NCBI GenBank assembly: GCA_964437555.1
Contig: CAYTHI010000002.1
Location: 7,653-71,652 of the forward strand
Source of the DNA: Candidatus Woesearchaeota archaeon
Lineage (GTDB): Archaea > Nanobdellota > Nanobdellia > Pacearchaeales > GW2011-AR1
Length of the DNA stretch: 64,000 bases
Reading direction: 5' to 3'
Part shown: in pieces, positions 5,501-24,365 of the stretch
How the letters are laid out: each line of letters starts with the position of its first letter
How positions within the stretch are numbered: the first letter of the stretch is position 1
Notes under the pieces: model-generated
Seen by the model: only the letters and a program-made list of their open reading frames with translations
Database searches by the model: none
Told to the model about the DNA's origin: nothing
Position numbers and translations under genes: made by a program

Positions 5501-7390
5501 ATCAGAAATGAATTCTTTGTCAGCATCCAAATGCTCTGCTTTGATAATTTCTATAATGAATGTCTGGTTGCTCAAACTAGGAGTAATCCATTCTACATAA
5601 TCGTAAACTCCATTTGAATTTATATCTGAAACTAAAGTCGGCTGAACATAAGCGTCCTTTTCCTTCCAAAAGATTTTCAGAGCATTAGGACTTTTAACTT
5701 CGAAACTTTCAGGAATATTTGTGAAAGACAAAACATCTGTATAATGAACACTATCAGGCCCAATAATCACAACCTCTTTTTTATCTTCCAATACACTTTC
5801 AATAGCATAAGGAGCAGGCGTTTCATACTCAATAGTCACTTCCTGAACTACATCTTGCCCTGTGCTGTCAACAACTTCCACAACATTGCCATCCACAGCT
5901 TTTTCAGATACACTAATCCCGCGTTCATCAGAAATAACAAGCCCGGTCTGACTGCCAAAAAGATTCTTTATCCAGTAAACAACAGAAATTAGGAAGTTGC
6001 CTTCCTTTTCCAGCTTAAGCTTTGCAACAACCTCGCCGGTTATTGCTGAAGATTCATCTGATGTAGTTTCTGCTGAAGCAGATTCCGGACTATTTGAAAC
6101 TGTTCCTGATGAGCCTTGCCCGCTGGATAAACTCTCTTCTACAATCTCTATAATATCTTCAACATCTTCTCCCCTGCTCGAATCAACATTAATCCGCTCC
6201 GCAATATCTCCTGACTTGCTCCTGTCAACCCTGACTATCCCGACAACCTCAACATTTTCTGCATATTCAGGAAGAGTAACAGTAACTTTTTTGGCCTCCT
6301 TTTCTGTTAAATCAATTTTTTGCACCCATTTCACAGGCTTTCCTAAAACGGCGCCGGTCTGCATTTTATCAACAACTATGTTCGCGGTTGCATTTTCTTC
6401 AGCAATGCCGCTGGCATTTTCTCCGGCTATCTCATTAGCTACTACTGAAACTCTCTTTTCCGTTTTGGCTAAAATTTTTCCATTATAAAATAAAGTTATT
6501 GAAATTAATTTGACGCTCTTTTCCGCAATTAACTCAAATTTGGATAATTCTATTTCTGCAATAAGCTTTTCAGAATCAGCCAGGAAATCCTCGCCAAACC
6601 CCTCAACTTTCTCAGAATAATCCGTTGAAACAATTAATTCTCCTCGTCTTACTCTGACATCAACTGAAGAGTCATCTATCACAAAACCACTGGCTTTTAC
6701 GCTTCCGGGCACAATCTCGGCATCCTGATTGCTTTCAATAGAATAAACAAAATTATTATCTTTGCTTGCCTTTCCTGAAATAATAAAAAAAGTTTCATAA
6801 ACTGTTCCTCCCGTAATTGGAGGCTTTTTTCCGCTGTCTCCGCCACCGCTATCCAAATCTGAAGGGGCTGCTGTATCCGAACCGCTTTCATCGCCTCTTC
6901 CGGCTTGATCTGCAGAACTCACGCTTGGAGAACCTCCCCCGCCTCTTCCGGAAGTTGATCCTATCTTTTGAGAAATGCGAATTTCAAATTCAACTTCAGG
7001 ATAAATTATCTTCTCTCCTAAAACACCATATCCCTTTCCGAAACCCACAATGTCTGTGCCTTCAGCATAAAACTCTCCAGAAACATGAGCTAAAGAAACA
7101 AGGCTGGAAAGAGAAAATTCTTTTGTTTTATCATCAATCTGAACAACAACTAACGAATCCTTTGGAACAAGCTCCCCTCCAAAAAGAGAAAGTTCCAAAA
7201 CTCCTCCGATTGGCTCCCCGACTTCATAAATAGCGCCCATTGTGTCAAGAGAAATTTTTCCAGTAGCTTTAGAAAATATTGAAGAATCTATAAACGAAAA
7301 AAATAAGGCTAATACAGCAGCAACAAGAAAAAAGTAAAGAACATACTTTCCTGCCCTTCCCGACTTATCAAAATTCATTTCATCCATCAC
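2567..7390 (-). CDS. Giant (1607 aa) cell-surface protein: N-terminal TM anchor, Ser/Gly/Asp-rich linkers, Asn-rich parallel beta-helix-like repeats, C-terminal dockerin-like Ca-binding repeats
   Basis: Single 4.8-kb ORF; N-terminal hydrophobic helix (YVLYFFLVAAVLALFFSF); long stretches of NxS/T-rich short repeats (GNNHILQNMTVRNTNSS...) typical of pectin-lyase-fold beta helices and of N-glycosylated archaeal surface proteins; C-terminal DVTGDGQITLADVLSI and DINCDDEMDVVDLANIG resemble dockerin/EF-hand-like repeats. Confidence 0.7.
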   Translation of the reverse strand: MMDEMNFDKSGRAGKYVLYFFLVAAVLALFFSFIDSSIFSKATGKISLDTMGAIYEVGEPIGGVLELSLFGGELVPKDSLVVVQIDDKTKEFSLSSLVSLAHVSGEFYAEGTDIVGFGKGYGVLGEKIIYPEVEFEIRISQKIGSTSGRGGGGSPSVSSADQAGRGDESGSDTAAPSDLDSGGGDSGKKPPITGGTVYETFFIISGKASKDNNFVYSIESNQDAEIVPGSVKASGFVIDDSSVDVRVRRGELIVSTDYSEKVEGFGEDFLADSEKLIAEIELSKFELIAEKSVKLISITLFYNGKILAKTEKRVSVVANEIAGENASGIAEENATANIVVDKMQTGAVLGKPVKWVQKIDLTEKEAKKVTVTLPEYAENVEVVGIVRVDRSKSGDIAERINVDSSRGEDVEDIIEIVEESLSSGQGSSGTVSNSPESASAETTSDESSAITGEVVAKLKLEKEGNFLISVVYWIKNLFGSQTGLVISDERGISVSEKAVDGNVVEVVDSTGQDVVQEVTIEYETPAPYAIESVLEDKKEVVIIGPDSVHYTDVLSFTNIPESFEVKSPNALKIFWKEKDAYVQPTLVSDINSNGVYDYVEWITPSLSNQTFIIEIIKAEHLDADKEFISDIYDEVKALDGVWSEAIPSEDYVRVTFERNLTSENDITLYPRIVSGNPGIEVYTFNGSEVIAVFDNLIPEEYNKVYLTGLKGEQDTFDLRVLNGDVEFDHIIDPDFEPSTVATLRAQACSAENLGAQNSYASACDGIYPGNCGGEEITDFLSCDDGSSETQTFNTAQYGGVNISSYNSSVTNCATTGDVFLCYEWWIVGSNPASCLIAVDADGGGSYSNVTTTCPGTSANPGLTCTNVTSLETWTCSNFFGSSGTRAMARDEITRTGIAAGGQVLTTDALFFNVTYVLADQTAPSVTINFPANTTYDDDDLPFIFNVSLNENGSLVQYSLDDGINNLTMSSMDNREHNATNSSIALGGYNFRVFANDTSGNNNYTASVRFTITNSSLITGCKELNVAGKTYVQGSSFVPAGLEACINITAQNVTFNGNGFSIGNTITSVDLIYSDQYGTVVNNVNLIRSTGLSSNVGIKLLNSNNSKVLNSKFSGNVGVSLQGVYNSNFSNNNFTTSDRGVNAVGTADGNNSFTNNSHYNANYGLVLGGDNHEVSASEFNNMTVNALFMSGNNYNVSKSIFINAVGAVEISSDGNNSRFDNLTFIDSVDTPITLSGNNHILQNMTVRNTNSSYYDIDFAGANRTNVIDSYFANYTFSGTGGILRYVETTQGEIYFLRDVNGSGTNLSNDIRLSNNLAVVESTNNIGLNRSANITFYNMPANFTEPYIFRDSSICFDCYNYTSLNAATVLFNVTSFTSYYIADLGQCLALPQCAEGSDCNVTSSCLLYSELCTNNICDFTNLKLNASLYTLFDSSGNGRNLVLNVSQNVTFLPGNQIVFRGKAGAQGGNGGIVNATVSNLFNRTNGVIDGVGGAGALTEGAAGAGGNGGIFQMNAHGFIRSFSSTNLAGGSGASSGTAGATIVNKNLNCPVDADVTGDGQITLADVLSITNNYNKALGQEGYNASYDINCDDEMDVVDLANIGFEYEDR

Positions 7391-10891: not shown

Positions 10892-12655
10892 ATGAAACTA
10901 AAAAGAGGGATAATAATTGCTATAATCCTTATTGCAATAATCATTGCGTTTGTATTATACAAAAAAGAAATACTGCAATTTGGGGAAGACAATGAAAAAA
11001 GCAATTACATTCCAGGCCAGGCATCTATCGGATATATAGGATGCTCAAACACAAGAGAAACAGTTGAAGGCTATCACAGAGTAGGCGGAGGAGACATGTG
11101 GGATTATGATAAAAGATATGATTCAGGCGCTGTTAAAGACTGGGCGCTGGATGCAGAGCCGGAAAAAAGATATTGGAATGTCTTTGATGAGCTTCTTGAA
11201 GAAAATCCGAAAACTAAATTTATATGGTGGGAGCTCTGCATACGCGATGATGAAAGGGAAACAAATTATGAGCAAGCCCAGATTATTTTAAATGAAATCA
11301 GGCAGCGAATTCCTGATGCAGTAATTTATGTCTCTGCACTGGCAGATTATACAGAGGGGGTGTGCGAAATAACAGGCACATTCGGGATAGAAAAAGCAAA
11401 AGAATTAGTCCGGGAATTAGAAAATAATAACGCTGATGTATTTCCAGGCCCTGTGCTTGGCCCTATGGCTCCAATTGATACTGCAAAAGACGGCTGCCAT
11501 CTAAGCAGCCCTGATGGAAAAAGAAAATTAGGAAACCAGATGAAAAAATTCTTTGATAATGAAATGAAAACAGATGATAATGAGCTTTCCTTTGAGGAAA
11601 AAGTCTGGCAGCAGAGAATTGACGCTGCTGTTGCTCCTGTAAATTGCCCTGCAGCAACTCGAAGAACATATCCTCAAGGATATTATGCGGAAAAATTGAT
11701 TGATACTCATTTTCATATTGCTAACATTCCTGATTCAACGCCAAGGGAATTTGAAAAAGGATATCAGGAAGAAAGCGAGCATCCGAGATTAGGAAAAGAT
11801 ATTAGCATCGCAGATATTGTCTGCACTTTAGAGCATGAAGGAACAGCAAAGGCTCTCGGCTTCTTCCCCTTGTATAGGGAAATCCAAGAACAAATGGCTC
11901 AAGTTGTATATGAAACAATGCAAAAATACCCTGACAAATTTATTCCATTTATCATGCCTCCTGATAATGATGGCAGCCCTGATGGATTTCCAACAGTAGA
12001 AGCACAAACCTTGCAGGAAATGCTCAATATTTATCCTGGCTTGTTTGAAGGATACGGAGAAATTGGCTTATATGCGCGGGGAGACAATGGAGGCCCGACA
12101 GGCGCCCCAGAGCTCCCTCCAGACTCTCAAAGGCTTGCTGATATTTATCCAATAATCAGAGAAAATAATTTAGTTATTTACTTTCATTTAGGAGAAGGGC
12201 AAAAGGAAAGTTTTGAAACAGCCTTGACAGCAAATCCTGATATTAATTTCATCTGGCATGGAGACCAATTAATCCCATATGAAAATGGCATTCAAAACTT
12301 AGAGCATATTGATGATATTTTAAGCAATCATCCAAATGCATATTACGGAATAGATGAATTATATGGAGACATCTGGCTTCTCCGCCCTGAAGTCAGCAAG
12401 GAAGAATTTTTAGCGCATTTTGAAAATCAGGAAGAATTATTGGAAAAAGACCTTGCTACATGGAAAAATTTTATAGACTCCCATCCTAATCAGGTATTAT
12501 GGGGAACAGACAGGGGATGGAGTTCCAAATGGTCAATAGATAAAGATGTCGGAATAACATTATCTGATTACACCCGCGCTTTCATCGGCAGGCTCTCCCC
12601 AGATGTTCAGGAAAAATTCGCCTACAAAAATGCCGAGAGATTGTTTGGCGAATAA
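10892..12655 (+). CDS. Membrane-anchored two-domain protein with a C-terminal amidohydrolase-2/TIM-barrel metal-dependent hydrolase-like domain
   Basis: N-terminal TM helix (IIIAIILIAIIIAFVLY); DTHFHIAN and C-terminal LWGTDRGW motifs resemble amidohydrolase_2 family proteins. Confidence 0.5.
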   Translation: MKLKRGIIIAIILIAIIIAFVLYKKEILQFGEDNEKSNYIPGQASIGYIGCSNTRETVEGYHRVGGGDMWDYDKRYDSGAVKDWALDAEPEKRYWNVFDELLEENPKTKFIWWELCIRDDERETNYEQAQIILNEIRQRIPDAVIYVSALADYTEGVCEITGTFGIEKAKELVRELENNNADVFPGPVLGPMAPIDTAKDGCHLSSPDGKRKLGNQMKKFFDNEMKTDDNELSFEEKVWQQRIDAAVAPVNCPAATRRTYPQGYYAEKLIDTHFHIANIPDSTPREFEKGYQEESEHPRLGKDISIADIVCTLEHEGTAKALGFFPLYREIQEQMAQVVYETMQKYPDKFIPFIMPPDNDGSPDGFPTVEAQTLQEMLNIYPGLFEGYGEIGLYARGDNGGPTGAPELPPDSQRLADIYPIIRENNLVIYFHLGEGQKESFETALTANPDINFIWHGDQLIPYENGIQNLEHIDDILSNHPNAYYGIDELYGDIWLLRPEVSKEEFLAHFENQEELLEKDLATWKNFIDSHPNQVLWGTDRGWSSKWSIDKDVGITLSDYTRAFIGRLSPDVQEKFAYKNAERLFGE

Positions 12656-12670
12656 TTAATTAAATAAAAA

Positions 12671-12813
12671 TTTGGGCGGAGAAACCTGCAAGGTTTCGGA
12701 ACCGTTAAATTCCTGTTAATTGCCCCGAGCCGATAGGCGAGAGCGCAGCGTGGTCGAGGCAAAGCCGAAGAAGTTTTCAAAAATCCGTCATCAAGGGCGA
12801 AGCCCCATAAATT
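12671..12813 (+). repeat. GC-rich ~145-nt element, copy 1 (core GGGCGGAGAAACCTGCAAGGTTTCGGAACCG), lying ~100 nt upstream of gene 12911
   Basis: About 80% identity over the first ~50 nt with copy 2 at 14080-14228; local GC clearly above the window background; contains short hairpins (AAACCT-GCA-AGGTTT; GGTT-TCGG-AACC). Confidence 0.6.
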
Positions 12814-12823
12814 CAAATGTTTT

Positions 12824-12838
12824 AGAGGGGGAACTTTT
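12824..12838. repeat. Left arm (AGAGGGGGAACTTTT) of a 15-bp perfect inverted repeat bracketing gene 12911..13885
   Basis: Exact reverse complement of AAAAGTTCCCCCTCT at 13925-13939; ATGTTTT occurs on the outer side of both arms. Confidence 0.6.
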
Positions 12839-12910
12839 TATTTTTAATAGTCATTTAGGGGTAGTAAAATTATAGAAAGCTTTATAAAGTATCAGTTAAT
12901 TCAAATACTT

Positions 12911-13885
12911 ATGGAATTAGAGATTATTACAGAAAGAGAATCAAGCCCGTTTAGAAATATCTTTCCTGAAATATCTGAACATTCAAATGGTAGAAGGTAT
13001 GGACAAGACCTGAAAAAAATGGAACAAGTTATGGGCGAATTCTTAGATTCATTACACTTACCGAGAGATTCACGAACTTTAGAGATTGGAGCAGGACATG
13101 GGCAAGAACCATCTAAAGCACTTCTTGCATTAGGAGCGAAACCAGCGACATTAGATGCTGATTGGAATGAGTATTGTAAAGGAACTATTCCAACAACTAA
13201 GGATTTAGATAGAATTGGAGAAGCACAATTATATCCTATGTTGGCTGGTCAAAATGGCGTAAATCATTATCTTGGTGATGTTGCTTTCATTGGAGATGGA
13301 AGAAGCCAATTGAAAAATGAACGATTTGATTTGCTTTTTTATTGGGGGAGTATTCATGGAACTGATTTTTGTTCTTCAGTTCAGCAAAGTAGAACATCAA
13401 AATATGATTTCAAAAGAGATGTTCCATTAAAGGATAGGTTGGTTGCTCCAATTGGTAATGTAGAAAATAGTATGGCTTATGTTTCTGGATTTTTCAACAG
13501 AACAGGAGACCCGCATATGACACCAAAAAATATCATTGCTTTCAACGGCGATATGGTAGATACTGCATTGTTGTGGGCAAATTATGAGAACAGACAGCCA
13601 CACAGGGTTTTGGTTTTTGGTTTATCGCCTGATTTTGCATTTGAATATGTAAGGGGTGTCGGAGACGAATCTTTAATTGATAAACCAACAGACGCCGAAT
13701 ACAGAGAAGCCGTTGATAATGATACCATTGAAAAATTCATGGCAAATCATTGGTCAATGTTTTCTGACTACAAAGCAAAAGATAGTTCAGCGTATAGAAA
13801 AGCTTTGGAAGTCTTTTCTCCAGCACAGCAAAAAGCAATAAGTGATTTGGGTTTGGTGGATTGTGTTGCTGTGCAGTATAAATAA
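12911..13885 (+). CDS. Rossmann-fold methyltransferase-like protein (hypothetical)
   Basis: 324 aa; TLEIGAGHGQEP resembles SAM-MTase motif I and FDLLFYWG a post-II motif; codon usage slightly atypical for the window. Confidence 0.5.
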   Translation: MELEIITERESSPFRNIFPEISEHSNGRRYGQDLKKMEQVMGEFLDSLHLPRDSRTLEIGAGHGQEPSKALLALGAKPATLDADWNEYCKGTIPTTKDLDRIGEAQLYPMLAGQNGVNHYLGDVAFIGDGRSQLKNERFDLLFYWGSIHGTDFCSSVQQSRTSKYDFKRDVPLKDRLVAPIGNVENSMAYVSGFFNRTGDPHMTPKNIIAFNGDMVDTALLWANYENRQPHRVLVFGLSPDFAFEYVRGVGDESLIDKPTDAEYREAVDNDTIEKFMANHWSMFSDYKAKDSSAYRKALEVFSPAQQKAISDLGLVDCVAVQYK

Positions 13886-13904
13886 TTTCTTTTTTGCAGA
13901 AAAA

Positions 13905-13951
13905 GACTATCTGTCCGCAGCACTAAAAGTTCCCCCTCTTTCTATGTTTTA
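13905..13951 (+). repeat. Dispersed repeat family, copy A (AGACTATCTGTCCG ... CCCTCTTTCTATGTTTTA)
   Basis: Shares AGACTATyTGTCCG with copies D and B, and CCCTCT..CTTTCTATGTTTTA with copy C at 43826-43861. Confidence 0.55.
13925..13939. repeat. Right arm (AAAAGTTCCCCCTCT) of the 15-bp inverted repeat
   Basis: Perfect reverse complement of 12824-12838, 1.1 kb away. Confidence 0.6.
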
Positions 13952-14079
13952 GGATTTTTGAAAATTGCAATTAACATATGCGATTAAGCGACCTGAAAGG
14001 CTCGAGTGTAGAAATTTTTCCCTCGTGAAACAGAGCTGGAAAAATTGCGGAACGCTCGAGTGTTTTTGCGTAGCAAAAA

Positions 14080-14228
14080 TATGGGTGGAAAAACCTGCAA
14101 GGTTTTGGAACCGCTTAATCTGCTGTTCATTTCTCCCGAATACTTGTAGGGATTACATTTTAGTGCAACGATGCCGAAGGCAAAAATGTAAAGTTAAATC
14201 GGACTTTGGGATGGTGGGACACCATTGA
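14080..14228 (+). repeat. GC-rich ~150-nt element, copy 2 (core GGGTGGAAAAACCTGCAAGGTTTTGGAACCGC), ~135 nt upstream of gene 14364
   Basis: Paralog of 12671-12813 in the same orientation; the 87-aa ORF 13965..14228 overlapping it is probably spurious. Confidence 0.6.
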
Positions 14229-14261
14229 GTTTTATGTATTAGAGGATTCGCCGTCTTTTTG

Positions 14262-14322
14262 CTTCTTTTTTTCTAAAAAAGAAGTTTGAGATGGGGCTTT
14301 TGCCTTCTTTTTCTAAAAGAAG
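14262..14322 (+). promoter_or_regulatory. Two tandem perfect hairpins (CTTCTTTTTT-TCT-AAAAAAGAAG, then CTTCTTTT-TCT-AAAAGAAG) with T-tracts, directly upstream of gene 14364
   Basis: Perfect 10-bp and 8-bp stems with identical TCT loops, each preceded by TTTTGC; candidate terminator or regulatory structure. Confidence 0.5.
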
Positions 14323-14363
14323 TTTTAGTAAGATATTTAAATAAGTAAACTAATTTTCTTATA

Positions 14364-15083
14364 ATGGACAAATCAAAATATAGTGTTGAAGAAATTATTT
14401 TTAAAAAGTGCCCTATATGCAAAAAAGGAAAAGTAGAAAAATTAGCACCAAGGGGTTTTTTTAGTTTCGCTAAATCTACTAAAATGATTTGTAATAAATG
14501 TTTAGCACAATTCTCTGAAGATGAAGAATATCAAGAGGAACCAACTTACATATTGGATTTATCTGAATCTAATGAAAAGAATAAATATGAAGGTGAAACA
14601 TTAAAGAAAAGTGAATGGGAAAGAGGTATTTCTGATTTGGATTTATGCGTAAAAACAAATAACTTACCAAAAGCAAGTGTAGTCGGTTTGAAAATTATAC
14701 TAAAGCCAGGAGAACAAGCCCATTGGTATTCTTCTTCAAAACTTATGGAAGAAAGAGCAATAAGACGTTCACATGGTGGAGCTGTAAGGGTAATGAAAGG
14801 TGTATATATTGGAGGAAGCCAATCAGAATCTCATGGAGAATTAAGAACAATAGATAATGGGGGATTATTACTCACAAATCAAAGATTAATTTTTAATGGC
14901 GGATTCAAAAATATAGAATATCCTCTTAGTAAAATTGTTTCTGTAGAAGAATATAAAGATTCAATAGAAATAGGTTCAACTAACAGACAGAAAGTTCAGT
15001 TATATGTAGTTCAAGAACCACATAAATGGGCGACATTTGTTAAAATGGCTGTTCAAATGTCCCATAATGTAAAGAAAAAATAA
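14364..15083 (+). CDS. Zn-ribbon plus bacterial-PH (bPH/GRAM-like) domain protein
   Basis: N-terminal CPICKKG...CNKC zinc ribbon; C-terminal GGLLLTNQRLIF motif typical of bPH_2/YdbT-like PH domains. Confidence 0.55.
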   Translation: MDKSKYSVEEIIFKKCPICKKGKVEKLAPRGFFSFAKSTKMICNKCLAQFSEDEEYQEEPTYILDLSESNEKNKYEGETLKKSEWERGISDLDLCVKTNNLPKASVVGLKIILKPGEQAHWYSSSKLMEERAIRRSHGGAVRVMKGVYIGGSQSESHGELRTIDNGGLLLTNQRLIFNGGFKNIEYPLSKIVSVEEYKDSIEIGSTNRQKVQLYVVQEPHKWATFVKMAVQMSHNVKKK

Positions 15084-15101
15084 TTCTTAAAATTCATTTC
15101 G

Positions 15102-15134
15102 GCGAAGCAGACTATTTGTCCGAAGGACGCCCCC
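15102..15134 (+). repeat. Dispersed repeat family, copy D (GCGAAGCAGACTATTTGTCCGAAGGACGCCCCC)
   Basis: A 19-nt identical core (GCGAAGCAGACTATTTGTC) with copy B; contains the GTCC-GAA-GGAC hairpin. Confidence 0.55.
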
Positions 15135-15257
15135 ATCTCAAGAAAAAAAACTGAAAAATATTTGGGTGTAACGAAGTGAAACCTTTTATCGTTTGTTAGA
15201 TGAAGTGCGAAGCATTTCATAGCCGTTTTTTGGTCCGATAAAAGAAGTATTTTTCTG

Positions 15258-15299
15258 TTTTTACTTTCTGCGAAGCAGACTATTTGTCGCGAAGCGACC
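15258..15299 (+). repeat. Dispersed repeat family, copy B (GTTTTTACTTTCTGCGAAGCAGACTATTTGTCGCGAAGCGACC)
   Basis: Shares its left half with copy C (43826-43861) and its right half with copy D; contains the CTGC-GAA-GCAG and GTCGC-GAA-GCGAC hairpins. Confidence 0.55.
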
Positions 15300-15451
15300 G
15301 AGGCGACTCGCATTTGACAACAATTTCTACTATTGGGTGGGAGAGAATTTTTAATTTGGATGCAATCTGGGAACATAAAGTTATCCCAAGTAGAGTTGGG
15401 ATAACATGCCTAAATACGCATTATCATAAATTATAAATACAATACCATCTA

Positions 15452-16270
15452 ATGCAAAGCATGCAAAAAGAAGAACACCTTAAAAGGCTAAGGCAGGAGC
15501 TTGAGATAAGGAATTTTTCTAAGGAAACAATAAAATCCTACTTAAGTTCAGTCAATAAATTCCTTGATTATTCTAATGGCAATGAAATGAGCCAGCAAAA
15601 AGTCAAAGATTACATACAATCAAGAATAAGCAATAAAAATCCATCTACAATAAGGCAGGGCATATTCGCAATTCAGTTCTTTTTTGATAAGGTTTTAGGC
15701 CAGAAAATATACATTCCAAGGCCTAAAAAGAACAAAACTCTCCCTGAAATACTTACTCTTGAAGAAGCAAAAAAGCTTGTGAATGCTCCTTTAAACCCAA
15801 AACATCAGCTAATATTAAAAATTTTGTACGGATGCGGCTTACGTGTAAGTGAAGTTATAAGTTTGATGAAAAAAGACATTAATTTAGATGAAAGTATGAT
15901 TCACATAAGAATGGCAAAAGGAAAAAAGGACAGGTTCGTAAAAATTCCTGAAAGCGTAAAAGAAGAGTTAGAGCATTATGCGGTTCTTAACAAAGAAGAA
16001 CTCTTATTCCCCTCGCAAAGAGGCGGAAAGCTTACAACAGCAGGAATTCAGGCAATAGTTGAAAAATCAGCCAAAAAAACAGGAATAAAAAAAGATGTTT
16101 ATCCGCACCTGCTAAGGCATAGTTTTGCAACCCATCTCCTTGAGCAGGGCACAGACTTAAGAATAATCCAAAAATTATTAGGGCATTCAGATATCAGAAC
16201 TACACAAATGTATCTTCAGATTTCACAGCAATCTATAAAAAACATAAGAAGCCCCTTAGACAGCAAATAA
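15452..16270 (+). CDS. xerA: Tyrosine site-specific recombinase, XerA/XerCD-like
   Basis: 272 aa; C-terminal LLRHSFATHLLEQGTDLRIIQKLLGHSDIRTTQMYLQI contains the R..H..R..Y catalytic signature of tyrosine recombinases. Confidence 0.85.
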   Translation: MQSMQKEEHLKRLRQELEIRNFSKETIKSYLSSVNKFLDYSNGNEMSQQKVKDYIQSRISNKNPSTIRQGIFAIQFFFDKVLGQKIYIPRPKKNKTLPEILTLEEAKKLVNAPLNPKHQLILKILYGCGLRVSEVISLMKKDINLDESMIHIRMAKGKKDRFVKIPESVKEELEHYAVLNKEELLFPSQRGGKLTTAGIQAIVEKSAKKTGIKKDVYPHLLRHSFATHLLEQGTDLRIIQKLLGHSDIRTTQMYLQISQQSIKNIRSPLDSK

Positions 16271-16271
16271 A

Positions 16272-18548
16272 ATGCCAATTCAAAGCTATCCCCCAACAAC
16301 AGATGCAAAGATAACTGTAGAAAAAACTGTAAAGCGAAAGCCTTCAACAGAAGAGCTTACAACAATAGAAAAGCCAGGCAAGCCAATTCCAGCTTCAGAG
16401 ATGGAAGAATTTGAAAAAGAAAAGCCAAAAAAAACAAAAAAAGCAAGAAGGCAAAATAAGCCAAAAACCCAAGAAGCAACAAAAATAAGCCAAAAGCAGG
16501 ATGCAATATTAATAATAACAGAAAAGCCGCAAGCTGCATTGAAAATTGCCTCTGCATTGGGAGATGCAAGAAAATATTCTGAAAATAATGTTCCTTTCTA
16601 TGAATTGGAGAAAAACAATGAGAAAATAATTGTCGCTTCTGCAGTGGGGCATTTGTTTAATCTTACATATGTGAAAGGCCAGACAGGCTGGCCTATCTTC
16701 AAGACAGAATGGGTCCCATCCTATACTCAAAAAGCTTCCTATACAAAAAATTACTATGATTTAATAAAAAAATTATCAAGAAGGGCAAAAGAAATAATCG
16801 TTTCTACTGATTATGACATAGAAGGAGAAGTAATAGGGTGGAACGTCCTTAGATTTATCTGCAGCAAAGAAGACGCAAAAAGGATGAAATACTCTACATT
16901 AACAAAGCCTGAATTAATAAAATCATATGAAAATGCAATGCCTCATCTGGATTGGGGGCAGGCGTATGCAGGTGAAACAAGGCATGAAATAGACTGGCTT
17001 TACGGAATTAACCTATCAAGGGCATTAATGTCTGCAATAAAAACTACAGGCGGCTTCAAGATACTTTCAATAGGCCGTGTTCAGGGCCCTGCATTAAAAA
17101 TAATAGTGGACAGGGAAAAAGAAATATCAAGCTTCAAATCCAAAGTGTATTGGCAGGTTTTTGCCATTATAGGAAAAAATGAGTTTAAGCATCCCAAAGA
17201 TATTTTTGAAAAGACAGAACTTGAGCAATTTAAAGATATAAAAGAAGCTGACGCAGAAACAAAAGCATCCGAAGAAAATCTGCAGCCTCCGCATCCGTTT
17301 GATTTAACAGCACTGCAAAGAGAAGCATATCGCCTTCATAACTTAAGCCCTTCAAAAACTCTTCAGATAGCGCAGGCATTATACTTAGACGGAGTTATTT
17401 CGTATCCCAGAACTTCCTCGCAAAAAATACCAGAGCAGATAGAGCCAAAAAATATCCTTGAAAAATTAGCTAAGAAATATCCCCAGACAAAATATGCCGT
17501 GAGAAGCAAGCCGGTTGAAGGCGGGAAATCAGACCCTGCTCACCCTTCAATATACCCAACAGGCGAATTTAACAATTCATTAAAAGAAGATGAAAAAGAG
17601 CTATATGAATTAATAGTAAAAAGATTCATAGCCTGCTTTTGCGAGGATGCAATAACAGCAAATAAAAGGATAAAGCTGGCATCATTAAAAGACCCTAAAA
17701 AAACATTTACAGCTTCTGCCCTGACAATAAAAGAAAAAGGCTGGCTGAATGTTTACCCAACAGAATTGCAGGAAAGCTCTTTGCCTGACTTATCAGGAAG
17801 AGTAAAAATAGACAAAATCAGGATTGATGAAAAGCTTACACAGCCTCCGAAAAGATACACGCCTGCTTCTTTAGTCTCCTTACTGGAAAAAAAGAATCTC
17901 GGCACAAAAACAACAAGAAGCATGATTGTAGATACTTTATTTGACCGCGGATATTTAGACGGAAAAAGCATTCAGGCAACTCCTCTTGGTTTAAAACTTA
18001 TTGAAACCCTGGAAAAATATTCTCCGATAATTATTGACGAAAACCTCACAAGAGAATTAGAGGAAAAAATGGAAGAAATTCAGAATTCAAAAGCTGGTTT
18101 TCAGGAAAAGAAAGATAAAGTCATCCATAATGTTGAAAGATTAATCACAGACATCTCAAAAGAATTCAGAATTAATGAAAGAAACATCGGGCAGGATTTA
18201 TTGCAGGGCACACAAGAGTTAAGAGAACAGCAGAAAGAAAACAGCATAATAATGCCCTGCCCTGTCTGCAAAAAAGGGCATTTAGCGATAAAATACTCAA
18301 AAAAGAACAGAAGGCAGTTTGTTGCCTGTGATAATTACCCTGAATGCAAAACAACTTTCTCTCTGCCCCCCGGCGGATTTGTAAAAAAAACAGACAAAGT
18401 TTCAGAAAAAGGCCTGCCAATATTAATTTTATTAAAAAGAGGCAGGCGTCCGTGGGAATTTCCATTCAATCCAAACTGGAAAGCCGAGCAGCAAAAAGAA
18501 CAGCAGGAACATCAAGAACAGAAACCCCAAAAAGATAGCGAAGAATAA
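16272..18548 (+). CDS. topA: DNA topoisomerase, type IA (Topo I/III-like), with a C-terminal C4 zinc ribbon and a Lys/Glu/Pro-rich ~90-aa N-terminal extension
   Basis: TOPRIM begins at AILIITEKPQAA; type IA core motifs (GYISYPRT-like VISYPRTSSQ); CPVCKKG...CDNYPEC zinc ribbon; low-complexity basic N-terminus and acidic/Q-rich C-terminus. Confidence 0.85.
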   Translation: MPIQSYPPTTDAKITVEKTVKRKPSTEELTTIEKPGKPIPASEMEEFEKEKPKKTKKARRQNKPKTQEATKISQKQDAILIITEKPQAALKIASALGDARKYSENNVPFYELEKNNEKIIVASAVGHLFNLTYVKGQTGWPIFKTEWVPSYTQKASYTKNYYDLIKKLSRRAKEIIVSTDYDIEGEVIGWNVLRFICSKEDAKRMKYSTLTKPELIKSYENAMPHLDWGQAYAGETRHEIDWLYGINLSRALMSAIKTTGGFKILSIGRVQGPALKIIVDREKEISSFKSKVYWQVFAIIGKNEFKHPKDIFEKTELEQFKDIKEADAETKASEENLQPPHPFDLTALQREAYRLHNLSPSKTLQIAQALYLDGVISYPRTSSQKIPEQIEPKNILEKLAKKYPQTKYAVRSKPVEGGKSDPAHPSIYPTGEFNNSLKEDEKELYELIVKRFIACFCEDAITANKRIKLASLKDPKKTFTASALTIKEKGWLNVYPTELQESSLPDLSGRVKIDKIRIDEKLTQPPKRYTPASLVSLLEKKNLGTKTTRSMIVDTLFDRGYLDGKSIQATPLGLKLIETLEKYSPIIIDENLTRELEEKMEEIQNSKAGFQEKKDKVIHNVERLITDISKEFRINERNIGQDLLQGTQELREQQKENSIIMPCPVCKKGHLAIKYSKKNRRQFVACDNYPECKTTFSLPPGGFVKKTDKVSEKGLPILILLKRGRRPWEFPFNPNWKAEQQKEQQEHQEQKPQKDSEE

Positions 18549-18630
18549 AAATAAGGTAATTAACAAATGTTTTAAAAATTTATTAGAGGATAAATACTAT
18601 AGAAGAAAAATATATTTAGCTATAACTTAA

Positions 18631-19569
18631 TCACTGCCTGTCAACAAAGAAATTCACAGAATCTTCCTTCCACTCATCATAAAGCGTGCACTGGACTTCC
18701 AGATTATAGAAATCAGGAAACATAGTGTGCTGCAAATTATTGATAACGCCGGAGTGCTGCCTTCCTACTTCCTGGTCAATTGCATCCCAGGGAATGCAAT
18801 CCTCGCGAGTAATATGAGTGCCGTCAACAATTATTCTGCAATATCTATAAACACAAGTGGTATCTTCATTCGTAGTCACTTCTATTGGTGTATGGTCTAA
18901 GAAAACTATTTCATCATCCAGCGGAGCAGTTATTTTTATGTCTATATTGGCATTTTCAGTCTGAAAGCAATATAAATGGGCTCCATTATAATATGCTTGG
19001 TCGCATGCCTGCGATGTAAATTCTGTCCATTTCTTATCATTTGCTGTCAGATCCCCCAAGCCGGCATAATAATTTTCCGCATTATTAATATCCAGTCCTT
19101 GCCAATTATTGCACATCCTTCCTCTCCATTTCTGCCCATTGCTCTTTGTTCCTGTATAAACAAAGCCCCCACTAATGCCTCTGCTAAACTCATCAATAAG
19201 CAGACTTGCTCTTAAATGCCCGTCCACTAAATCTGCTTTATTATCTGCAATGGATATTCCATCAATTCTAATATATCTTCCTTCCGGAATCCTGTCTGCG
19301 GCATTATACTCATCTGTGCTTAGCCATGCAGCAAATGTTCCTGGAAGGTATGCAGCATCGGCAGCTTCCTGGCATAATTCATCTGCCGTTGGAGTTTCCA
19401 ATAAATTAGGATTATAAAATTTAAGGCTCGTAACAAAAACTAAAACATCCTCCGCGTAAGTAGGGCTGTTTTGCACATCTTTGGCAACAGAGATTGAAGA
19501 AACATTAAGGGCAAAAGCAATACCGATAAAAAATATTGCCGAAAAAACACCAATAATTGCGGGTTTCAT
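18631..19569 (-). CDS. Secreted hypothetical protein with signal peptide
   Basis: 312 aa; N-terminus MKPAIIGVFSAIFFIGIAFALNVSS; Cys-containing extracellular-type domain; no firm family. Confidence 0.55.
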   Translation of the reverse strand: MKPAIIGVFSAIFFIGIAFALNVSSISVAKDVQNSPTYAEDVLVFVTSLKFYNPNLLETPTADELCQEAADAAYLPGTFAAWLSTDEYNAADRIPEGRYIRIDGISIADNKADLVDGHLRASLLIDEFSRGISGGFVYTGTKSNGQKWRGRMCNNWQGLDINNAENYYAGLGDLTANDKKWTEFTSQACDQAYYNGAHLYCFQTENANIDIKITAPLDDEIVFLDHTPIEVTTNEDTTCVYRYCRIIVDGTHITREDCIPWDAIDQEVGRQHSGVINNLQHTMFPDFYNLEVQCTLYDEWKEDSVNFFVDRQ

Positions 19570-19622
19570 TTAAGATTTTATTTTCATGGAAACTATTTAA
19601 GCATTTATGTATAAAAACATTA

Positions 19623-19841
19623 TTATGCAACTAAATCCAAATCACTTGACTCAAGACCACTCAATTTTCCCTTTCCGTCGTAAACTAAATACCTCTGCAT
19701 AGGATTGTAGCCATCATTTCTTTGTCCATCAGCATATCTCCTTCCGCTATCAGAAGCAGCAACTGGTTCAACCGCTCTAACAAATGCTGGGTGTTCTGTC
19801 CTTGCAAAAGAATCAGACTGAATGTGGGCTCCGTACATCAT
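19623..19841 (-). CDS. Small hypothetical protein immediately downstream of rpl15e
   Basis: 72-aa ORF starting 2 nt after the rpl15e stop; Ala/Asp/Gly/Arg-rich composition atypical for the window. Confidence 0.3.
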   Translation of the reverse strand: MMYGAHIQSDSFARTEHPAFVRAVEPVAASDSGRRYADGQRNDGYNPMQRYLVYDGKGKLSGLESSDLDLVA

Positions 19842-19842
19842 T

Positions 19843-20427
19843 TTATTTTCCCTTCCTGTTCCAAGCTCTCAACGACGGCCTGACTTTCAAATTGGAGCTC
19901 TTTCCCTTATTGCTGGTCAATCCTCTGGATTTCTTAGCCGCGCTTGTCAATCCTCTTTCAGCCCTCTTCCTGTTTTTATCAGAAGAAATCCATTTGTAAA
20001 CAGGATCGTTTTTAATCTCTGGCTTGCCAGGATCAACCATTATAACTTCATAAAAATAATATTTCCCGTCTTTAGCAAGCAAATATGAATTTAACACTTC
20101 CAGATTCTTAAATTTCTTTGCAGCCCTTATCTCTGCAACCCATTGATAGCTCATCTTTAATGTTTTTCTGACCGTCTGCTTTCTTGTCTTTCTTCCTTTA
20201 ACTCCCTGCCTTTCTCTCTTTCTCCCGCCTCTCTTAACTCTTGAGCGGACAACAACAAATCCTGTTTTATCTTTATAGCCAACGGACCTTGCCCTGTCAA
20301 TTCTCAATGGCTTTTCAGTAACAACTAAAGAGTTTCCTGCTCTCCATGCAATTAATCTGTCTTTTAGCATTTCTCTTGAAGGCTTTCTCCAAGCCTGCTT
20401 CATATAAGAATACATTCCCTTAGCCAT
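19843..20427 (-). CDS. rpl15e: 50S ribosomal protein L15e
   Basis: 194 aa; highly basic; MAKGMYSYMKQAWRKP...GYKDKTGFVVVRSRVKRGGRKR are conserved L15e blocks. Confidence 0.85.
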   Translation of the reverse strand: MAKGMYSYMKQAWRKPSREMLKDRLIAWRAGNSLVVTEKPLRIDRARSVGYKDKTGFVVVRSRVKRGGRKRERQGVKGRKTRKQTVRKTLKMSYQWVAEIRAAKKFKNLEVLNSYLLAKDGKYYFYEVIMVDPGKPEIKNDPVYKWISSDKNRKRAERGLTSAAKKSRGLTSNKGKSSNLKVRPSLRAWNRKGK

Positions 20428-20500
20428 TCAATCAATTCAGAAAACAGCTTTTTAAAACTTGCTGTTATGCTTTTCTCCAGAATAAAAGAAAAAACAACAA

Positions 20501-20510
20501 TTTTATAAAC
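20501..20510 (+). promoter_or_regulatory. TATA-box-like element (TTTTATAAAC) ~25-30 nt upstream of tRNA-Ile
   Basis: Archaeal TATA consensus TTTAWATA-like at the canonical distance from the tRNA 5' end. Confidence 0.45.
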
Positions 20511-20532
20511 GAAGAAATAAAGATTAACTTGT

Positions 20533-20619
20533 GATCCCGTAGCTCAGCCTGGTTAGAGCACTGCTCTGATAAGCCTATCAGAAAGGCAGGGGTCCCAAGT
20601 TCAAATCTTGGCGGGATCA
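20533..20619 (+). tRNA. tRNA-Ile (anticodon GAT) with a 12-nt intron at the canonical 37/38 position
   Basis: Acceptor GATCCCG/CGGGATC, D-arm GCTC-AGCCTGGTTA-GAGC, anticodon stem CTGCT/GGCAG with loop CTGATAA, T-arm CCAAG-TTCAAAT-CTTGG; the inserted GCCTATCAGAAA has TATCAG pairing with CTGATA (BHB-like). Confidence 0.75.
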
Positions 20620-20654
20620 TTCATAAAAGAGCATACTTAAACAAAGAGAGCAAA

Positions 20655-21191
20655 GTGAAAATAATAATCAAAAATAGCAAGAGTTTAACGAAAAAAGATA
20701 CGCAGATTATGAACGAAAAAAGAGTAAAAGAATTTGGAAAAGAAGAGGTCAAGAATTTTAAGAAAGATTATCCATTGAGCTCAAATTACCTTTTTGTAAA
20801 GGATAAATCTGAGATTGTTGCTTTTGGAATAATAAGACCAATAAAAATTAGCTATCTTGGAAAAACATATAATATTTTAGGATTGTGCAGTATAATATCC
20901 ATAGAAAAAGGCAAGGGCTATGGAAAAATTTTAGTTAATGCTATGATTAATATCGTAAAAAAGAAGAAAAAAAGCGCATTAGGATTTACTCTAAAAACAA
21001 AAATATTTGAAAAGATGGGCTTGAAATCCAAAAAAGGACTTATAAGAAAATTCAGATACAAAAATCCAAAAACAGGAAAAGTAGAAATAGATAACGAAGG
21101 AGACGGCATCTATATCAATGGCAAGGATAATCTCATAAATAAAATTCTGTCAACCAAATCAATAGTTTACATCGAAATACCTTTTTGGTAA
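20655..21191 (+). CDS. GNAT-family N-acetyltransferase-like protein
   Basis: 178 aa; KGKGYGKILV resembles GNAT motif A (acetyl-CoA binding). Confidence 0.5.
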   Translation: MKIIIKNSKSLTKKDTQIMNEKRVKEFGKEEVKNFKKDYPLSSNYLFVKDKSEIVAFGIIRPIKISYLGKTYNILGLCSIISIEKGKGYGKILVNAMINIVKKKKKSALGFTLKTKIFEKMGLKSKKGLIRKFRYKNPKTGKVEIDNEGDGIYINGKDNLINKILSTKSIVYIEIPFW

Positions 21192-21210
21192 AAAAAGCTA
21201 ATAGAAAAAA

Positions 21211-21846
21211 TCACTGCAAGCCAAACTCAACAACCAAGCCAGTATTATTTATGGCATATCCCTTTAAAGGTAAATTAACAGGAAGATTATTAACATAAAC
21301 CTTCTTTTTTCCTATTGCCTTGACTTCATATCCTGATTCAACTTTAGAAACAAAAACATCCTGCACACTTTCAATTCCGGGCGCTTCTAATTCATAAATA
21401 ATCTTATCACTCAATCTCCTGACAGAACTTTTGGCTTCTATTCTTGGCAAGCCTGACATTTTCTTAACCTGCTCTGCAGTAATACTAACTTTGTTGCTTT
21501 GCCTCTTTTTTGGCTCTTGTTTCGGAATCCCAAAATGAATCCTTATGCCATTAGGCAAAGTCTCAACACTTGATTCTTCCGCATTCTCTTTAAAGGCAGA
21601 TTTCATCTCCCTATCCAATGCCTTGAATAACCCATTCATTAAAGAGCCTATCATCTTATCTGTAAAACCCATATTTCCTCCTCCGATTAATGGCAATCCC
21701 TCAACATTATTATTTTTTCCAAGCAGGCCATAGTCTCTCATTTCTTTCTCAGGGTTTCTCAAATCACACCCGCAAAAAGGGCAAAAGTCATAGCTGTCTT
21801 TAATCTTCTCATCACACTTAGGACACGCTTTCTTCTTACCGAACAT
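21211..21846 (-). CDS. Zn-ribbon domain protein (hypothetical)
   Basis: N-terminal CPKCDEK...CPFCGC zinc ribbon; rest unassigned. Confidence 0.5.
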   Translation of the reverse strand: MFGKKKACPKCDEKIKDSYDFCPFCGCDLRNPEKEMRDYGLLGKNNNVEGLPLIGGGNMGFTDKMIGSLMNGLFKALDREMKSAFKENAEESSVETLPNGIRIHFGIPKQEPKKRQSNKVSITAEQVKKMSGLPRIEAKSSVRRLSDKIIYELEAPGIESVQDVFVSKVESGYEVKAIGKKKVYVNNLPVNLPLKGYAINNTGLVVEFGLQ

Positions 21847-21889
21847 GATTAATCTAAAAAGACCAAACTTTTAAATCTTTGGGAAGATT

Positions 21890-23284
21890 TTATTTCTCCC
21901 TTATGAGCTTCTTAAACCATACAACATCAGAATGCACCATTCTGAAAGGATGATGGAAATCAACATTTAATCCCTTAATTCTCTCTGTTTTTCTTACTTC
22001 CTCAAGGCGAGGCAGGAAAGAAAATACAACTATAAAGCGCAAAACCGCTGCAAGAGCAAAAACAAACAAAGTAGAGCTCATAAAAGTTATAGGCAGATAA
22101 TCTATCATCAGTCCTCCAAGAATAGAGCCTGCAAACACACCAATCCCGTTTAGCACGCTTGAATAAGCAACAATAATTCCTCTTTTCTGCTGAGAAACGC
22201 CATCATAAATATAATTAGTTGAGCCAATCGTAAAAGCCGCATTGGCTGCTCCTGAAATAAATCCCGGGATAAGAATAAGAAAAACAGGGTCTTTAAGAAA
22301 CATCCAAAACAATGGCGTTAGAGGAAAAGCAAACCCTGCGATGTAAAGCAGCTTAAGATTTCCATACTTATCAGAAAGTTTCCCGGCCAAAGGAGTCAGA
22401 ATTAAATAAAATACAGTTGTGCTCAAAGTTACAATAGTGAAAGTAAGAAGATTAAAATTTAAATCCTTGAGCATGTAGGTTGCAAAAAATGGAGAAGCAA
22501 CCATGATAGAAAAATTAAACAGCGCTTGGAAAACTGCAAATTTCCCTATTGTATCATATCTCTTCAAAAAAGCAATCATTGAAAATTTATCTTTTTTATG
22601 CAGTTTGAGCTGCGGAGAAAAGACCGTTCTTAGCTGATGAAAAGAAACAATTCTCAGAACGAGCGCAACACCGAACAAAATGATATAACCAACAAGCACA
22701 TCTCCGCCTTTCTCAAAAAACCTCAAAACCAAGCCTCCGGCTAAAAATGCACCAAGCCCAAAAATACCAGTTATTCTATTGCGCCTTGCAAAATAATGGC
22801 CCCTGTCCTCTGATGAAACAACATCGCCTATCCAGGAAAAAAATGGGGGTGATTTTACTCCGCTGAAAAAAACAAACAAGGAGTAAACAACAATCAAAAC
22901 ATAAGGCAGAACAGGAACATATAAATTATTCCAAAACAAATAAATGAGTAGAAACATAGGAACCAGCATCACTGATTCCAATAAAGTATAGCGAAGAAGT
23001 ATTTTCTTCCTGGAATGCTTTTCCATCAACTTGCTTCCCAACAAGCTTCCTAAGGGAGAGAGCAAGCCCGAAAATGCGCTTAGAAATCCAATTTGGGAAG
23101 TTGTCGCCTTAAGGGTTTGTGCAAAAGGCACAATAAATGAAGAGCTTAAGTTTGATGAAGCGTCGCTTACAACTCCATGCGAAATAAATCTCTTCCGGGC
23201 ATGCTCTTCAAAATGAATCACGTACGGAGACTGATTCACAATCATCTCTTTTCCTTTAGCCATGCCAAAAGAAAGAAAAGGCAA
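21890..23284 (-). CDS. Major facilitator superfamily-like transporter
   Basis: 464 aa with ~12 predicted hydrophobic helices in a 6+6 arrangement. Confidence 0.6.
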   Translation of the reverse strand: MPFLSFGMAKGKEMIVNQSPYVIHFEEHARKRFISHGVVSDASSNLSSSFIVPFAQTLKATTSQIGFLSAFSGLLSPLGSLLGSKLMEKHSRKKILLRYTLLESVMLVPMFLLIYLFWNNLYVPVLPYVLIVVYSLFVFFSGVKSPPFFSWIGDVVSSEDRGHYFARRNRITGIFGLGAFLAGGLVLRFFEKGGDVLVGYIILFGVALVLRIVSFHQLRTVFSPQLKLHKKDKFSMIAFLKRYDTIGKFAVFQALFNFSIMVASPFFATYMLKDLNFNLLTFTIVTLSTTVFYLILTPLAGKLSDKYGNLKLLYIAGFAFPLTPLFWMFLKDPVFLILIPGFISGAANAAFTIGSTNYIYDGVSQQKRGIIVAYSSVLNGIGVFAGSILGGLMIDYLPITFMSSTLFVFALAAVLRFIVVFSFLPRLEEVRKTERIKGLNVDFHHPFRMVHSDVVWFKKLIREK

Positions 23285-23307
23285 TTAATAAATCTTAAGA
23301 ATAGAAA

Positions 23308-23379: not shown

Positions 23380-23431
23380 TCTATCTTTTGTAAAAGAACA
23401 AGTTTAAAAACTAAATGGCATCAGAAATAAT

Positions 23432-24328: not shown

Positions 24329-24365
24329 GCATTATATTTTTATACCTTTCTAATCTTCTCTACTT

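Follow-up and report, generated by a model that had tools for sequence, protein, structure and literature searches.

What places a tyrosine recombinase gene directly beside a repeat-rich segment in an archaeal chromosome, and do the genes in that segment belong to the recombinase? We addressed this question in a 64,000-nt stretch of a Candidatus Woesearchaeota archaeon genome (contig CAYTHI010000002.1, positions 7,653 to 71,652 of the forward strand; hereafter the window), in which xerA (15452–16270, + strand), coding for a XerA-type tyrosine recombinase of 272 aa, abuts a segment at 12.66–15.45 kb that a preliminary description had read as an integrated or mobilizable element. We found that this segment comprises two accessory genes, gene 1 (12911–13885, +; 324 aa, with a fold like that of class I S-adenosylmethionine (SAM)-dependent methyltransferases) and gene 2 (14364–15083, +; 239 aa, Zn-ribbon plus PH-like), each with one copy of a structured element upstream. 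We consider it probable that the segment is the recombinase-proximal end of an Xer-linked, integron-like gene-cassette array, and that its two single-gene units make up a short array within a widespread platform that terminates in a recombinase gene. The layout seen at these loci combines the gene for a XerA-type tyrosine recombinase, a short palindrome of core-site type immediately ahead of the xerA promoter (15372–15407) and, further upstream, a co-oriented series of large folded elements with single accessory genes between them, each under a promoter of its own.

A Family of Structured Elements in Co-Oriented Arrays

Scanning the metagenome collection with the 19-nt core of the first window copy (GAACCGYTWAATTCCTGTT) returned this core from at least 120 contigs and, of the contigs listed, about 115 carry the same modular element. 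Its 5′ part is composed of ATTG-N4-TAACAT, an 11-nt box (consensus GGAATTTAACG), AAGT and one or more hairpins; the middle consists of ATTTGGG and then module A (GGAGAAACC-TGCAA-GGTTTCG) or, in its place, the longer module B; the 3′ part features GAAC, a complementary box (CGTTAAATTCC), TGTT and a small variable hairpin; and the element ends in a covarying stem with the invariant AGTGCAACG (D1) or in an alternative region (D2). The box-to-box length is ~50–190 nt, with the arms 23–160 nt apart and sites of ~170–330 nt overall, and conserved structure extends ~90 nt past the 3′ box. Complementarity of the 11-nt boxes holds in 111 of 137 instances; at least 12 compensated variants are changed at several positions on both sides (e.g., GCGATTAAGCG / CGCTTAATC in the window), and different variants occur inside one and the same array. 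The D1 stems likewise show double changes at 11 of their 20 predicted pairs, and the structure of the element is under selection.

The covariance model R1, built from 34 metagenome copies and the second window copy, recovers both copies on the + strand of the window. Copy 2 (13972–14194; 108.3 bits, E = 1.7e-21 for 14078–14194) is complete: TAACAT (13972–13977) and the 5′ box GCGATTAAGCG (13980–13990) are followed by three internal hairpins, the 3′ box CGCTTAATC (14112–14120), TGTT (14124–14127) and a D1 region with its invariant motif. Copy 1 (12669–12771; 75.1 bits, E = 2.2e-14) starts at ATTTGGG and retains the hairpin GAAACC-TGCAA-GGTTTC, the 19-nt core GAACCGTTAAATTCCTGTT (12699–12717) and a variant of the D1 region; its 5′ half is missing, with no TAACAT or 5′ box upstream, and it abuts the stop codon of the Amidohydro_2 gene (10892–12655) that forms the left flank of the segment. 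Truncated copies with different break points are also found in the loci L058, L072 and L088. The two window copies share a 45-nt block that is 87% identical and left flanks that are collinear over ~170 nt, and the GC content of the two element regions is 0.40 and 0.54 against ~0.355 (about 35%) for the AT-rich window. The claim that the same GC-rich element precedes each of the two genes is thereby borne out. Scanning the entire 64 kb with R1 returned no strong copy outside 12.67–14.2 kb, and weak matches at 15159–15206 (E = 0.5) and 51051–51150 (− strand, E = 0.19). In the latter, AAAATTCCTGTTTATTGCCC agrees with the core region of copy 1 at 19 of 20 positions, which may reflect either the decay of a former copy or coincidence.

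Among the metagenome loci, R1 identifies 101 copies in 70 loci, and in all 21 loci with at least two copies every copy lies on one strand (66 copies). Copies within an array are spaced 0.6–4 kb apart, are always intergenic and have 5′ boxes that start 20–130 nt after the stop codons of open reading frames (ORFs). The locus L152 displays twelve 5′ boxes on one strand within 14.6 kb, between which lie mutually unrelated genes for M23 peptidase, NUDIX, Bro-N, HAD, GATase and SNase proteins along with unknowns. In L142, L157 and L174, one identical element is found with different combinations of upstream and downstream sequence.

Modular, hairpin-forming, intergenic sequences of high copy number that break assemblies and leave truncated copies are also typical of pneumococcal BOX elements, repetitive extragenic palindromic sequences and their bacterial interspersed mosaic elements (REP/BIME), and miniature transposable elements that carry inverted repeats (MITEs), and contigs often break in the present elements. 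They could thus represent a non-autonomous structured repeat of this kind that spread into a permissive hot spot, with the genes as mere neighbors, and gene 1 does look like cargo between terminal inverted repeats. However, those repeats are dispersed in both orientations and have no tie to a recombinase, whereas the present arrays are unidirectional and end at xerA. The uniform orientation in every multi-copy locus, the constant placement of the elements with respect to the recombinase gene, the matching recombinase-proximal site, and the lack of any strong copy in the other 61 kb of the window all go against a dispersed repeat, as does the absence of an associated transposase and, by direct reading, of a target-site duplication at the junctions of the window and of L001, a second locus with gene 1. 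We regard this explanation as distinctly unlikely.

The Recombinase and Its Proximal Site

The window recombinase passes the archaeal XerA model NF040815 (recomb_XerA_Arch; 242 bits vs. a cutoff of 220), fails the integron-integrase model TIGR02249 (integrase_gron; 202 vs. 265), which it matches in two stretches, and reaches 129 bits against the 435 of NF011946. Similarly, its best relative in the PDB, the Pyrococcus abyssi XerA (4a8e), aligns in one stretch and VchIntIA (2a3v) in two. Its nearest relatives and those of the adjoining topoisomerase come from Pacearchaeota and Woesearchaeota metagenome-assembled genomes (MAGs), which, together with the low GC content and two tRNA genes of 88–90 nt, assigns the window to an archaeon of the DPANN type. 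An alignment of 18 full-length recombinases (17 element-linked versions and the window XerA) shows Xer-like proteins of 258–293 aa, all of which lack the IntI-specific insertion between the K and HxxR motifs; no recombinase with this insertion is encoded in ~1 Mb of element-bearing contigs. A XerA-like protein is encoded in 16 of the ~120 element-selected loci listed, and in 15 of these 16 the elements lie upstream of the recombinase gene and are co-oriented with it, with none found downstream. The same layout is seen in the window, in the GTDB Pacearchaeota locus L176 and in L012. In L174 (~5146–7146, − strand), the XerA-like frame appears to be split: the matches to residues 8–174 and 218–270 are separated by ~1.3 kb, as if the gene were a pseudogene or had received an intein, an intron or some other insertion.

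Most of the 19 recombinase genes examined are preceded, at 40–110 nt, by ATTG-N4-TAACA(T/C) and a palindrome with arms of 10–12 bp and a spacer of 4–9 bp (e.g., 11-6-11 in L179). In the window, this recombinase-proximal site (15372–15407, +) consists of AACAT, AAA and the palindrome GTTATCCCAA-GTAGAG-TTGGGATAAC (15380–15405), which has 10-bp arms and a 6-nt spacer (z = −3.1). Judged by its sequence, the site has the geometry of a duplex tyrosine-recombinase core site: the Xer/dif-type arrangement of ~11-bp arms around a 6–8-bp center is displayed by the proximal sites and not by the array elements. In some lineages, the proximal site is a minimal version of the array element. Upstream of it in the window, a conserved leader without a gene (15150–15330, +) begins in element-like fashion with ATTTGGGTG, TAACGAAGT, GAAACC and TGTTAG and is also conserved at the nucleotide level in L176 and L177, whose XerA proteins are only 62–66% identical to that of the window.

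These observations bear on the relationship with integrons. The cores of attC, the integron cassette site, are defined as RYYYAAC and GTTRRRY, and the consensus copy of the present element, with ATTTAAC ... GTTAAAT, fits both. The AAC/GTT triplet varies, being AGC/GCT in window copy 2 and of the forms CTTTAAAT, CTCTAAAT or CGGTTAAT in other copies; outside the boxes there is a further AAC/GTT pair (TAACA / TGTTA), and the TC that bulges out between TAACA and the 5′ box (2 nt) might take the role of the extrahelical bases of attC. Taken with the co-orientation of the arrays and their diverse single-gene cargo, the fit of the consensus boxes would suit an ordinary cluster of attC sites lacking an integron-integrase (CALIN), which would be served by a canonical IntI that is encoded elsewhere in the genome or provided by other organisms, its adjacency to XerA being incidental. 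Archaeal integrons, mostly CALINs, are reported by Ghaly et al. 2022 (PMC9668308), among them Pacearchaeales and Woesearchaeales MAGs with 2–4 attC and no IntI; these may or may not represent the present element, the strings of which are absent from those supplementary files of that study that were searched. A CALIN does not account for the lack of a recombinase with the IntI insertion in the element-bearing contigs, for the upstream and co-oriented position of the elements at 15 of the 16 Xer-type genes, or for the variable GTT/AAC triplet. Nor would one expect the boxes to covary within integrated arrays if crossover split R′, or the sites to be branched and to have a conserved region reaching ~90 nt past the 3′ box. 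Accordingly, we find a CALIN quite improbable.

The Proximal Site as a Border Between Constant and Variable DNA

xerA is followed after 1 nt by topA, the gene for topoisomerase I (16272–18548), and this pair is conserved in L105, L135 and L188–L194. In L105, the closest relative found, XerA, topA and the next gene are 86%, 60% and 66% identical to their window counterparts; the similarity stops at window position 15372, upstream of which there are different genes. A single identical XerA (P0073) occurs on six contigs with three different upstream sequences, which diverge 0–47 nt from the palindrome. Furthermore, 10 of 11 assemblies (including L188–L194 and L177–L179) have contigs that break off 90–900 nt ahead of xerA, a pattern that fits a repetitive or strain-variable region before xerA. 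L188, from an independent sample, is 100% identical to window 15235–24568 and starts inside the leader; the 269-aa form of the window XerA on record leads to this locus, and there is no exact record of the 272-aa form. Given the cut-off in L105, the divergence around P0073 and the contig ends, the proximal site marks the border of constant (xerA) and variable DNA. In L177, the leader directly follows a divergent gene, which makes this locus a possible cassette-free platform.

The same synteny argues against the reading with which we began, namely that the segment is a single integrated or mobilizable island, a remnant of a prophage or of an integrative and conjugative element, that brought its own recombinase. 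A tyrosine recombinase abutting a repeat-rich accessory segment is what such an island would look like. Yet the recombinase scores above the XerA equivalog threshold and is tightly linked to topA, and it is this side of the locus that is syntenic and the other that varies. Genes for replication, structural components or transfer are lacking from the segment, and we found no compositional anomaly in it relative to the window. The specific 19-mer of the element has no copy in 2.9 million viral contigs; a looser core pattern gave 42 matches there, all by chance and inside phage genes, and was set aside. We therefore deem an island extremely improbable. What survives of the preliminary description is that the DNA is accessory, exchangeable and linked to a tyrosine recombinase, as evident from L105 (which keeps xerA, topA and the next gene and has other genes upstream), L001 and the contig ends. 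What does not survive is a single repeat-bounded element: the repeats, rather than being boundaries of an island, belong to a family found on well over a hundred contigs (at least 120), and the recombinase is not cargo, because xerA–topA is the conserved side.

The Folding Molecule and the Place of the Promoters

Folded as single-stranded DNA, the region 13962–14136 yields a branched hairpin closed by the boxes at −32 kcal/mol (z = −4.4), and single-sequence RNA folds of the two elements alone are no better than shuffles (z = −0.3 and −1.0). In most of the small hairpins, a C:G pair closes a G-N-A triloop (CGAAG, CGCAG, CGTAG); examples lie at 12796–12806, 14176–14184, 15101–15108, 15269–15276 and 15289–15299. 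The C:G-closed GNA triloop is an exceptionally stable DNA mini-hairpin motif, so this preference hints that the folding molecule is DNA and not RNA.

A family of structured non-coding RNAs, or of transcription insulators or terminators, made from the strand of the recombinase gene has to be weighed here, the variability of the region then having other causes such as a nearby dif site. Helices that covary around strongly conserved unpaired motifs are the usual signature of functional RNA, and GC-rich islands in AT-rich archaeal genomes, of which the elements are an instance, are a classic RNA signal. The mismatches in the box stem are also mostly G.T on the shown (top) strand (~14 G.T vs. ~4 A.C by hand count), which gives a weak indication of the strand that folds and does not tell DNA from RNA. 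Conversely, apart from three tRNAs, nothing in the window exceeds the gathering thresholds of Rfam 15, and nothing credible is found at E up to 10 in the region 12400–15700. The orientation of the elements follows the recombinase gene and not the neighboring genes, which argues against a regulator of the untranslated-region type. The logic of 5′ flank plus box recurs before the recombinase gene as a compact, duplex-type palindrome, the triloops are predominantly of the DNA mini-hairpin type, and an RNA role would leave unexplained why the arrays end at xerA. We consider an RNA or terminator family unlikely, although the conserved unpaired motifs, for which we have no explanation, lend it some weight.

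The promoters point the same way for one particular version of this idea. Gene 1 has a TATA-like box (CTTTATAAAG) at ~12880, roughly 25 nt before its ATG, and direct reading places a TATA-like box likewise ~25 nt ahead of the ATG of gene 2; the GC-rich elements thus lie upstream of both promoters and are not 5′ leaders. A riboswitch or 5′-leader reading of the elements was rejected on this ground.

Cargo Genes and the Repeats Around Them

Both cargo genes were recovered as ORFs, and neither protein has a match in Pfam or NCBIfam; the labels given to them at the outset (methyltransferase-like; Zn-ribbon plus bPH) are reasonable in light of the fold predictions and Foldseek, with the caveat that the PH matches are weak. 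Gene 1 has only 14 homologs among 5.8e9 proteins. Its predicted structure (predicted local distance difference test (pLDDT) score of 80) matches methyltransferases in the PDB at E = 1.5e-5 with a TM of ~0.35, so that, as a structural prediction, its product resembles class I SAM-dependent methyltransferases. Gene 2 has 56 homologs, all apparently from Nanoarchaeota-type sources, several of which are fused to TPR repeats, PF09851, PF04283 or other domains. Its protein combines an N-terminal CxxC...CxxC Zn-ribbon-like part with a C-terminal PH-like domain (pLDDT 85), for which the Foldseek matches are weak (E ~2e-3, probability 1).

The homologs of gene 1 occur in five different gene contexts. 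In L001, gene 1 and its flanks (window 12707–13980) are 92% identical at the nucleotide level in an otherwise unrelated neighborhood; the similarity begins 8 nt inside the core and fades within the next element, and the 3′ module of the unit is kept with the gene. L004 (2062–6847) codes for a gene 1 homolog (66% identical) without a flanking element, inside a tight operon with ABC-transporter genes (ABC_tran, MacB/FtsX) and another methyltransferase-like gene, which may hint at the native functional context of gene 1. Homologs of gene 2 adjoin the recombinase gene in three lineages (window 14364–15083, L012 8001–8717 and L108 3878–4579), in one of them in the opposite orientation; this adjacency could mean that the two genes are functionally linked, or just that gene 2 is often the first cassette.

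Gene 1 is indeed bracketed, as had been noticed, by a 15-bp perfect inverted repeat (12824–12838 / 13925–13939). We found it to be part of a longer interrupted inverted repeat with three exact blocks, the other two being 12774–12786 / 13952–13964 and, by direct reading, 12714–12723 / 13967–13976. The right arm of the gene 1 unit (12714–12838, +) holds the three inverted blocks with GC-rich hairpin insertions between them, and in the 3′ module of this unit (13886–13977, +) a T-run and AGACTATCTGTCCGCAGCAC are accompanied by the left-arm blocks AAAAGTTCCCCCTCT ... GGATTTTTGAAAA ... GCAATTAACA. Gene 2 is bracketed by an 11-bp inverted repeat (14286–14296 / 15131–15141; direct reading). Upstream of its TATA box, two short tandem hairpins (14263–14323, +; CTTCTTTTT...AAAAAGAAG), which are the tandem hairpins described earlier, flank the arm TTGAGATGGGG (14286–14296) at about 14263–14285 and 14301–14323, and a 17-nt block of this region is conserved upstream of a gene 2 homolog in L009. 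The 3′ module of the second unit (15084–15141, +) contains the hairpin GGCGAAGC, followed by AGACTATTTGTCCGAAGGAC and the arm GCCCCCATCTCAA.

The regions after gene 1 and gene 2 are homologous, with an alignment well above chance (z ~5.9 vs. shuffles), and they supply two of the three copies of a 3′ repeat family (13892–13915, 15097–15120 and 15265–15288), the third of which lies in the leader of xerA. A fourth copy of this dispersed family had been placed 28 kb away at 43826–43861 (+; TTTCTATGTTTTACTTTCCGCGAAGC), upstream of a tRNA-Phe gene. The first three copies are real; the fourth comes down to a significant 26-nt match to 15252–15276 (score 42 vs. 21 ± 3.3 in shuffles, z ~6), is marginal against the post-gene-1 region (z ~2.5) and has no match by R1. 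Its suggested role as an empty or ancestral site was dropped, since the match covers only 26 nt, and L177 is the better candidate for a cassette-free locus. In the surrounding sequence (43770–43905), which lies downstream of a gene, the leader match is followed by CCATTATCAACACCTC, which resembles the ATTG-N4-TAACAC flank of recombinase-proximal sites and could be a solitary secondary site.

Proposed Mechanism and Relationship to Known Systems

We posit that the recombinase would recognize the paired boxes together with the TAACA/TGTTA flanks, in a folded strand or a cruciform, by analogy with IntI on attC or XerCD on the folded attP of the CTX phage. It would then exchange, insert and delete gene units between the elements and the proximal site, which would turn the region ahead of xerA into a store of swappable accessory genes. 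The loci demonstrate the element family and its structure, the geometry of the arrays, their tie to the recombinase and the variability of the cargo, whereas recombination as such, the place of crossover and the nature of the molecule that folds, DNA or RNA, are what we infer here. The crossover point is the part on which the arrays themselves give some purchase. An all-against-all megablast comparison of the loci provides only four informative junctions, at −116, −111, +8 and +87 relative to the core. The L001 similarity, which starts 8 nt into the core, had raised crossover at the attC position as a candidate; it was discarded on account of the covariation of the boxes in integrated arrays and the nearly complete linkage of the left module type to the right D type (76 vs. 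3 hybrids), both of which place crossover elsewhere. The few breakpoints instead suggest, on sequence grounds, that crossover may lie at ATTG-N4-TAACAT, the 5′ edge of the element, or where D1 ends.

Several observations weigh against a recombination-based cassette array. No circular form and no clean pair of occupied and empty sites were found among the loci. The linkage of left and right modules runs across the core, and both boxes covary inside integrated arrays, i.e., they are inherited together. Long stretches of the elements are conserved and unpaired (ATTTGGGTGGAG, AGTGCAACG), and there are additional hairpins; a recombination site has no obvious need of either, and both could point to an RNA function. 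In the clade of XerA orthologs, the arms of the proximal palindrome are unlike the boxes of the elements, and the ORFs beside elements point either way relative to them. Finally, the recombinase may simply be a housekeeping dimer resolvase, the nearby plasticity having been caused otherwise.

Cassette arrays nevertheless remain the closest parallel to what is displayed by these loci. As in integrons, a tyrosine recombinase gene lies at one end with a special site beside it, co-oriented imperfect-palindrome sites separate mostly single, unrelated genes, the cargo differs between close relatives, and the structure of the sites is conserved, with consensus boxes of the RYYYAAC / GTTRRRY form. As integrons are defined, however, these loci fall outside the family. 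Their recombinase, in the window, is a XerA-type enzyme of 272 aa without the IntI insertion that falls below the integron-integrase threshold. An attC site is a single hairpin of 57–141 nt that combines R and L boxes with an unpaired central spacer, extrahelical bases and a terminal loop that varies, whereas the fold predicted here is multi-branched with two to four internal hairpins. In integrons, crossover at the G|TT of R′ makes the R′ of an integrated cassette a hybrid that forms part of the next cassette; here the boxes covary, so crossover is not at this position. The cassette genes have their own promoters and point either way, and the array shares the orientation of the recombinase gene, whereas in integrons the two diverge.

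Two further Xer-dependent systems offer partial parallels. The pdif modules of Acinetobacter are likewise small accessory modules between Xer-type sites in varied contexts, and are thought to be shuffled by the host Xer recombinase and not by a dedicated integrase (PMC6449649, PMC13141974, PMC12907356). They differ in that their plasmid-borne sites are plain duplexes of 28 bp whose orientation alternates, and in their use of XerC plus XerD, whereas the present sites are co-oriented, chromosomal and located before the gene of a single XerA, with arms that, except in the recombinase-proximal site, are 23–160 nt apart and enclose hairpins. The second parallel lies with integrative mobile elements exploiting Xer (IMEX). 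In IMEX such as the CTX phage, the single-stranded attP folds into a forked hairpin that is used by XerCD. The proposed likeness is that Xer would act on a site formed by folding two inverted half-sites tens of nucleotides apart, and successive integrations of IMEX at one chromosomal site also build tandem arrays. The difference lies in the payload: IMEX are phages or islands of many genes, and the present units are single genes without replication or packaging functions.

Putting these comparisons together, we tentatively advance a broader view, in which we have somewhat less than even confidence, that the loci constitute an undescribed archaeal gene-capture platform. In it, a plain XerA, possibly the only Xer enzyme of the cell, would work with a palindromic site beside its own gene and with large folded hairpin sites, and single-gene cassettes would be stored and exchanged across Woesearchaeales/Pacearchaeales-type DPANN archaea; it would be a functional analog of integrons and possibly their evolutionary relative or an intermediate between Xer/dif and integrons. 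A literature search, itself of incomplete coverage, returned no description of these elements or of archaeal Xer-linked cassette arrays.

How DPANN archaea, which rely on hosts and whose genomes are tiny, come to acquire and exchange accessory genes is poorly understood; the platform, if real, would furnish a concrete, compact and widespread mechanism by which they gain and swap such genes. The 19-nt core and the ATTG-N4-TAACAT flank would serve as a simple signature for the flexible gene pool of DPANN archaea in metagenomes, and the elements would explain why assemblies of these organisms break ahead of xerA. Integron integrases are relatives of Xer with one added domain, and a Xer enzyme without that domain in an integron-like layout would make the origin of structure-specific cassette recombination testable in vitro. 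The elements are also candidate tools as new folded-DNA recombination sites.

Other Features of the Window

Two of the three tRNA genes of the window (20532–20620 and 44093–44182) are 88–90 nt long each, a length that introns probably explain. For the first of them, ARAGORN gave no assignment and printed the anticodon as 'ga'. At 60941–61006, there is a perfect-register tandem duplication of a 33-nt unit (TACTTTACTATTCCATCGTATAGT...), with 91% identity between its repeats, which is unrelated to the array.

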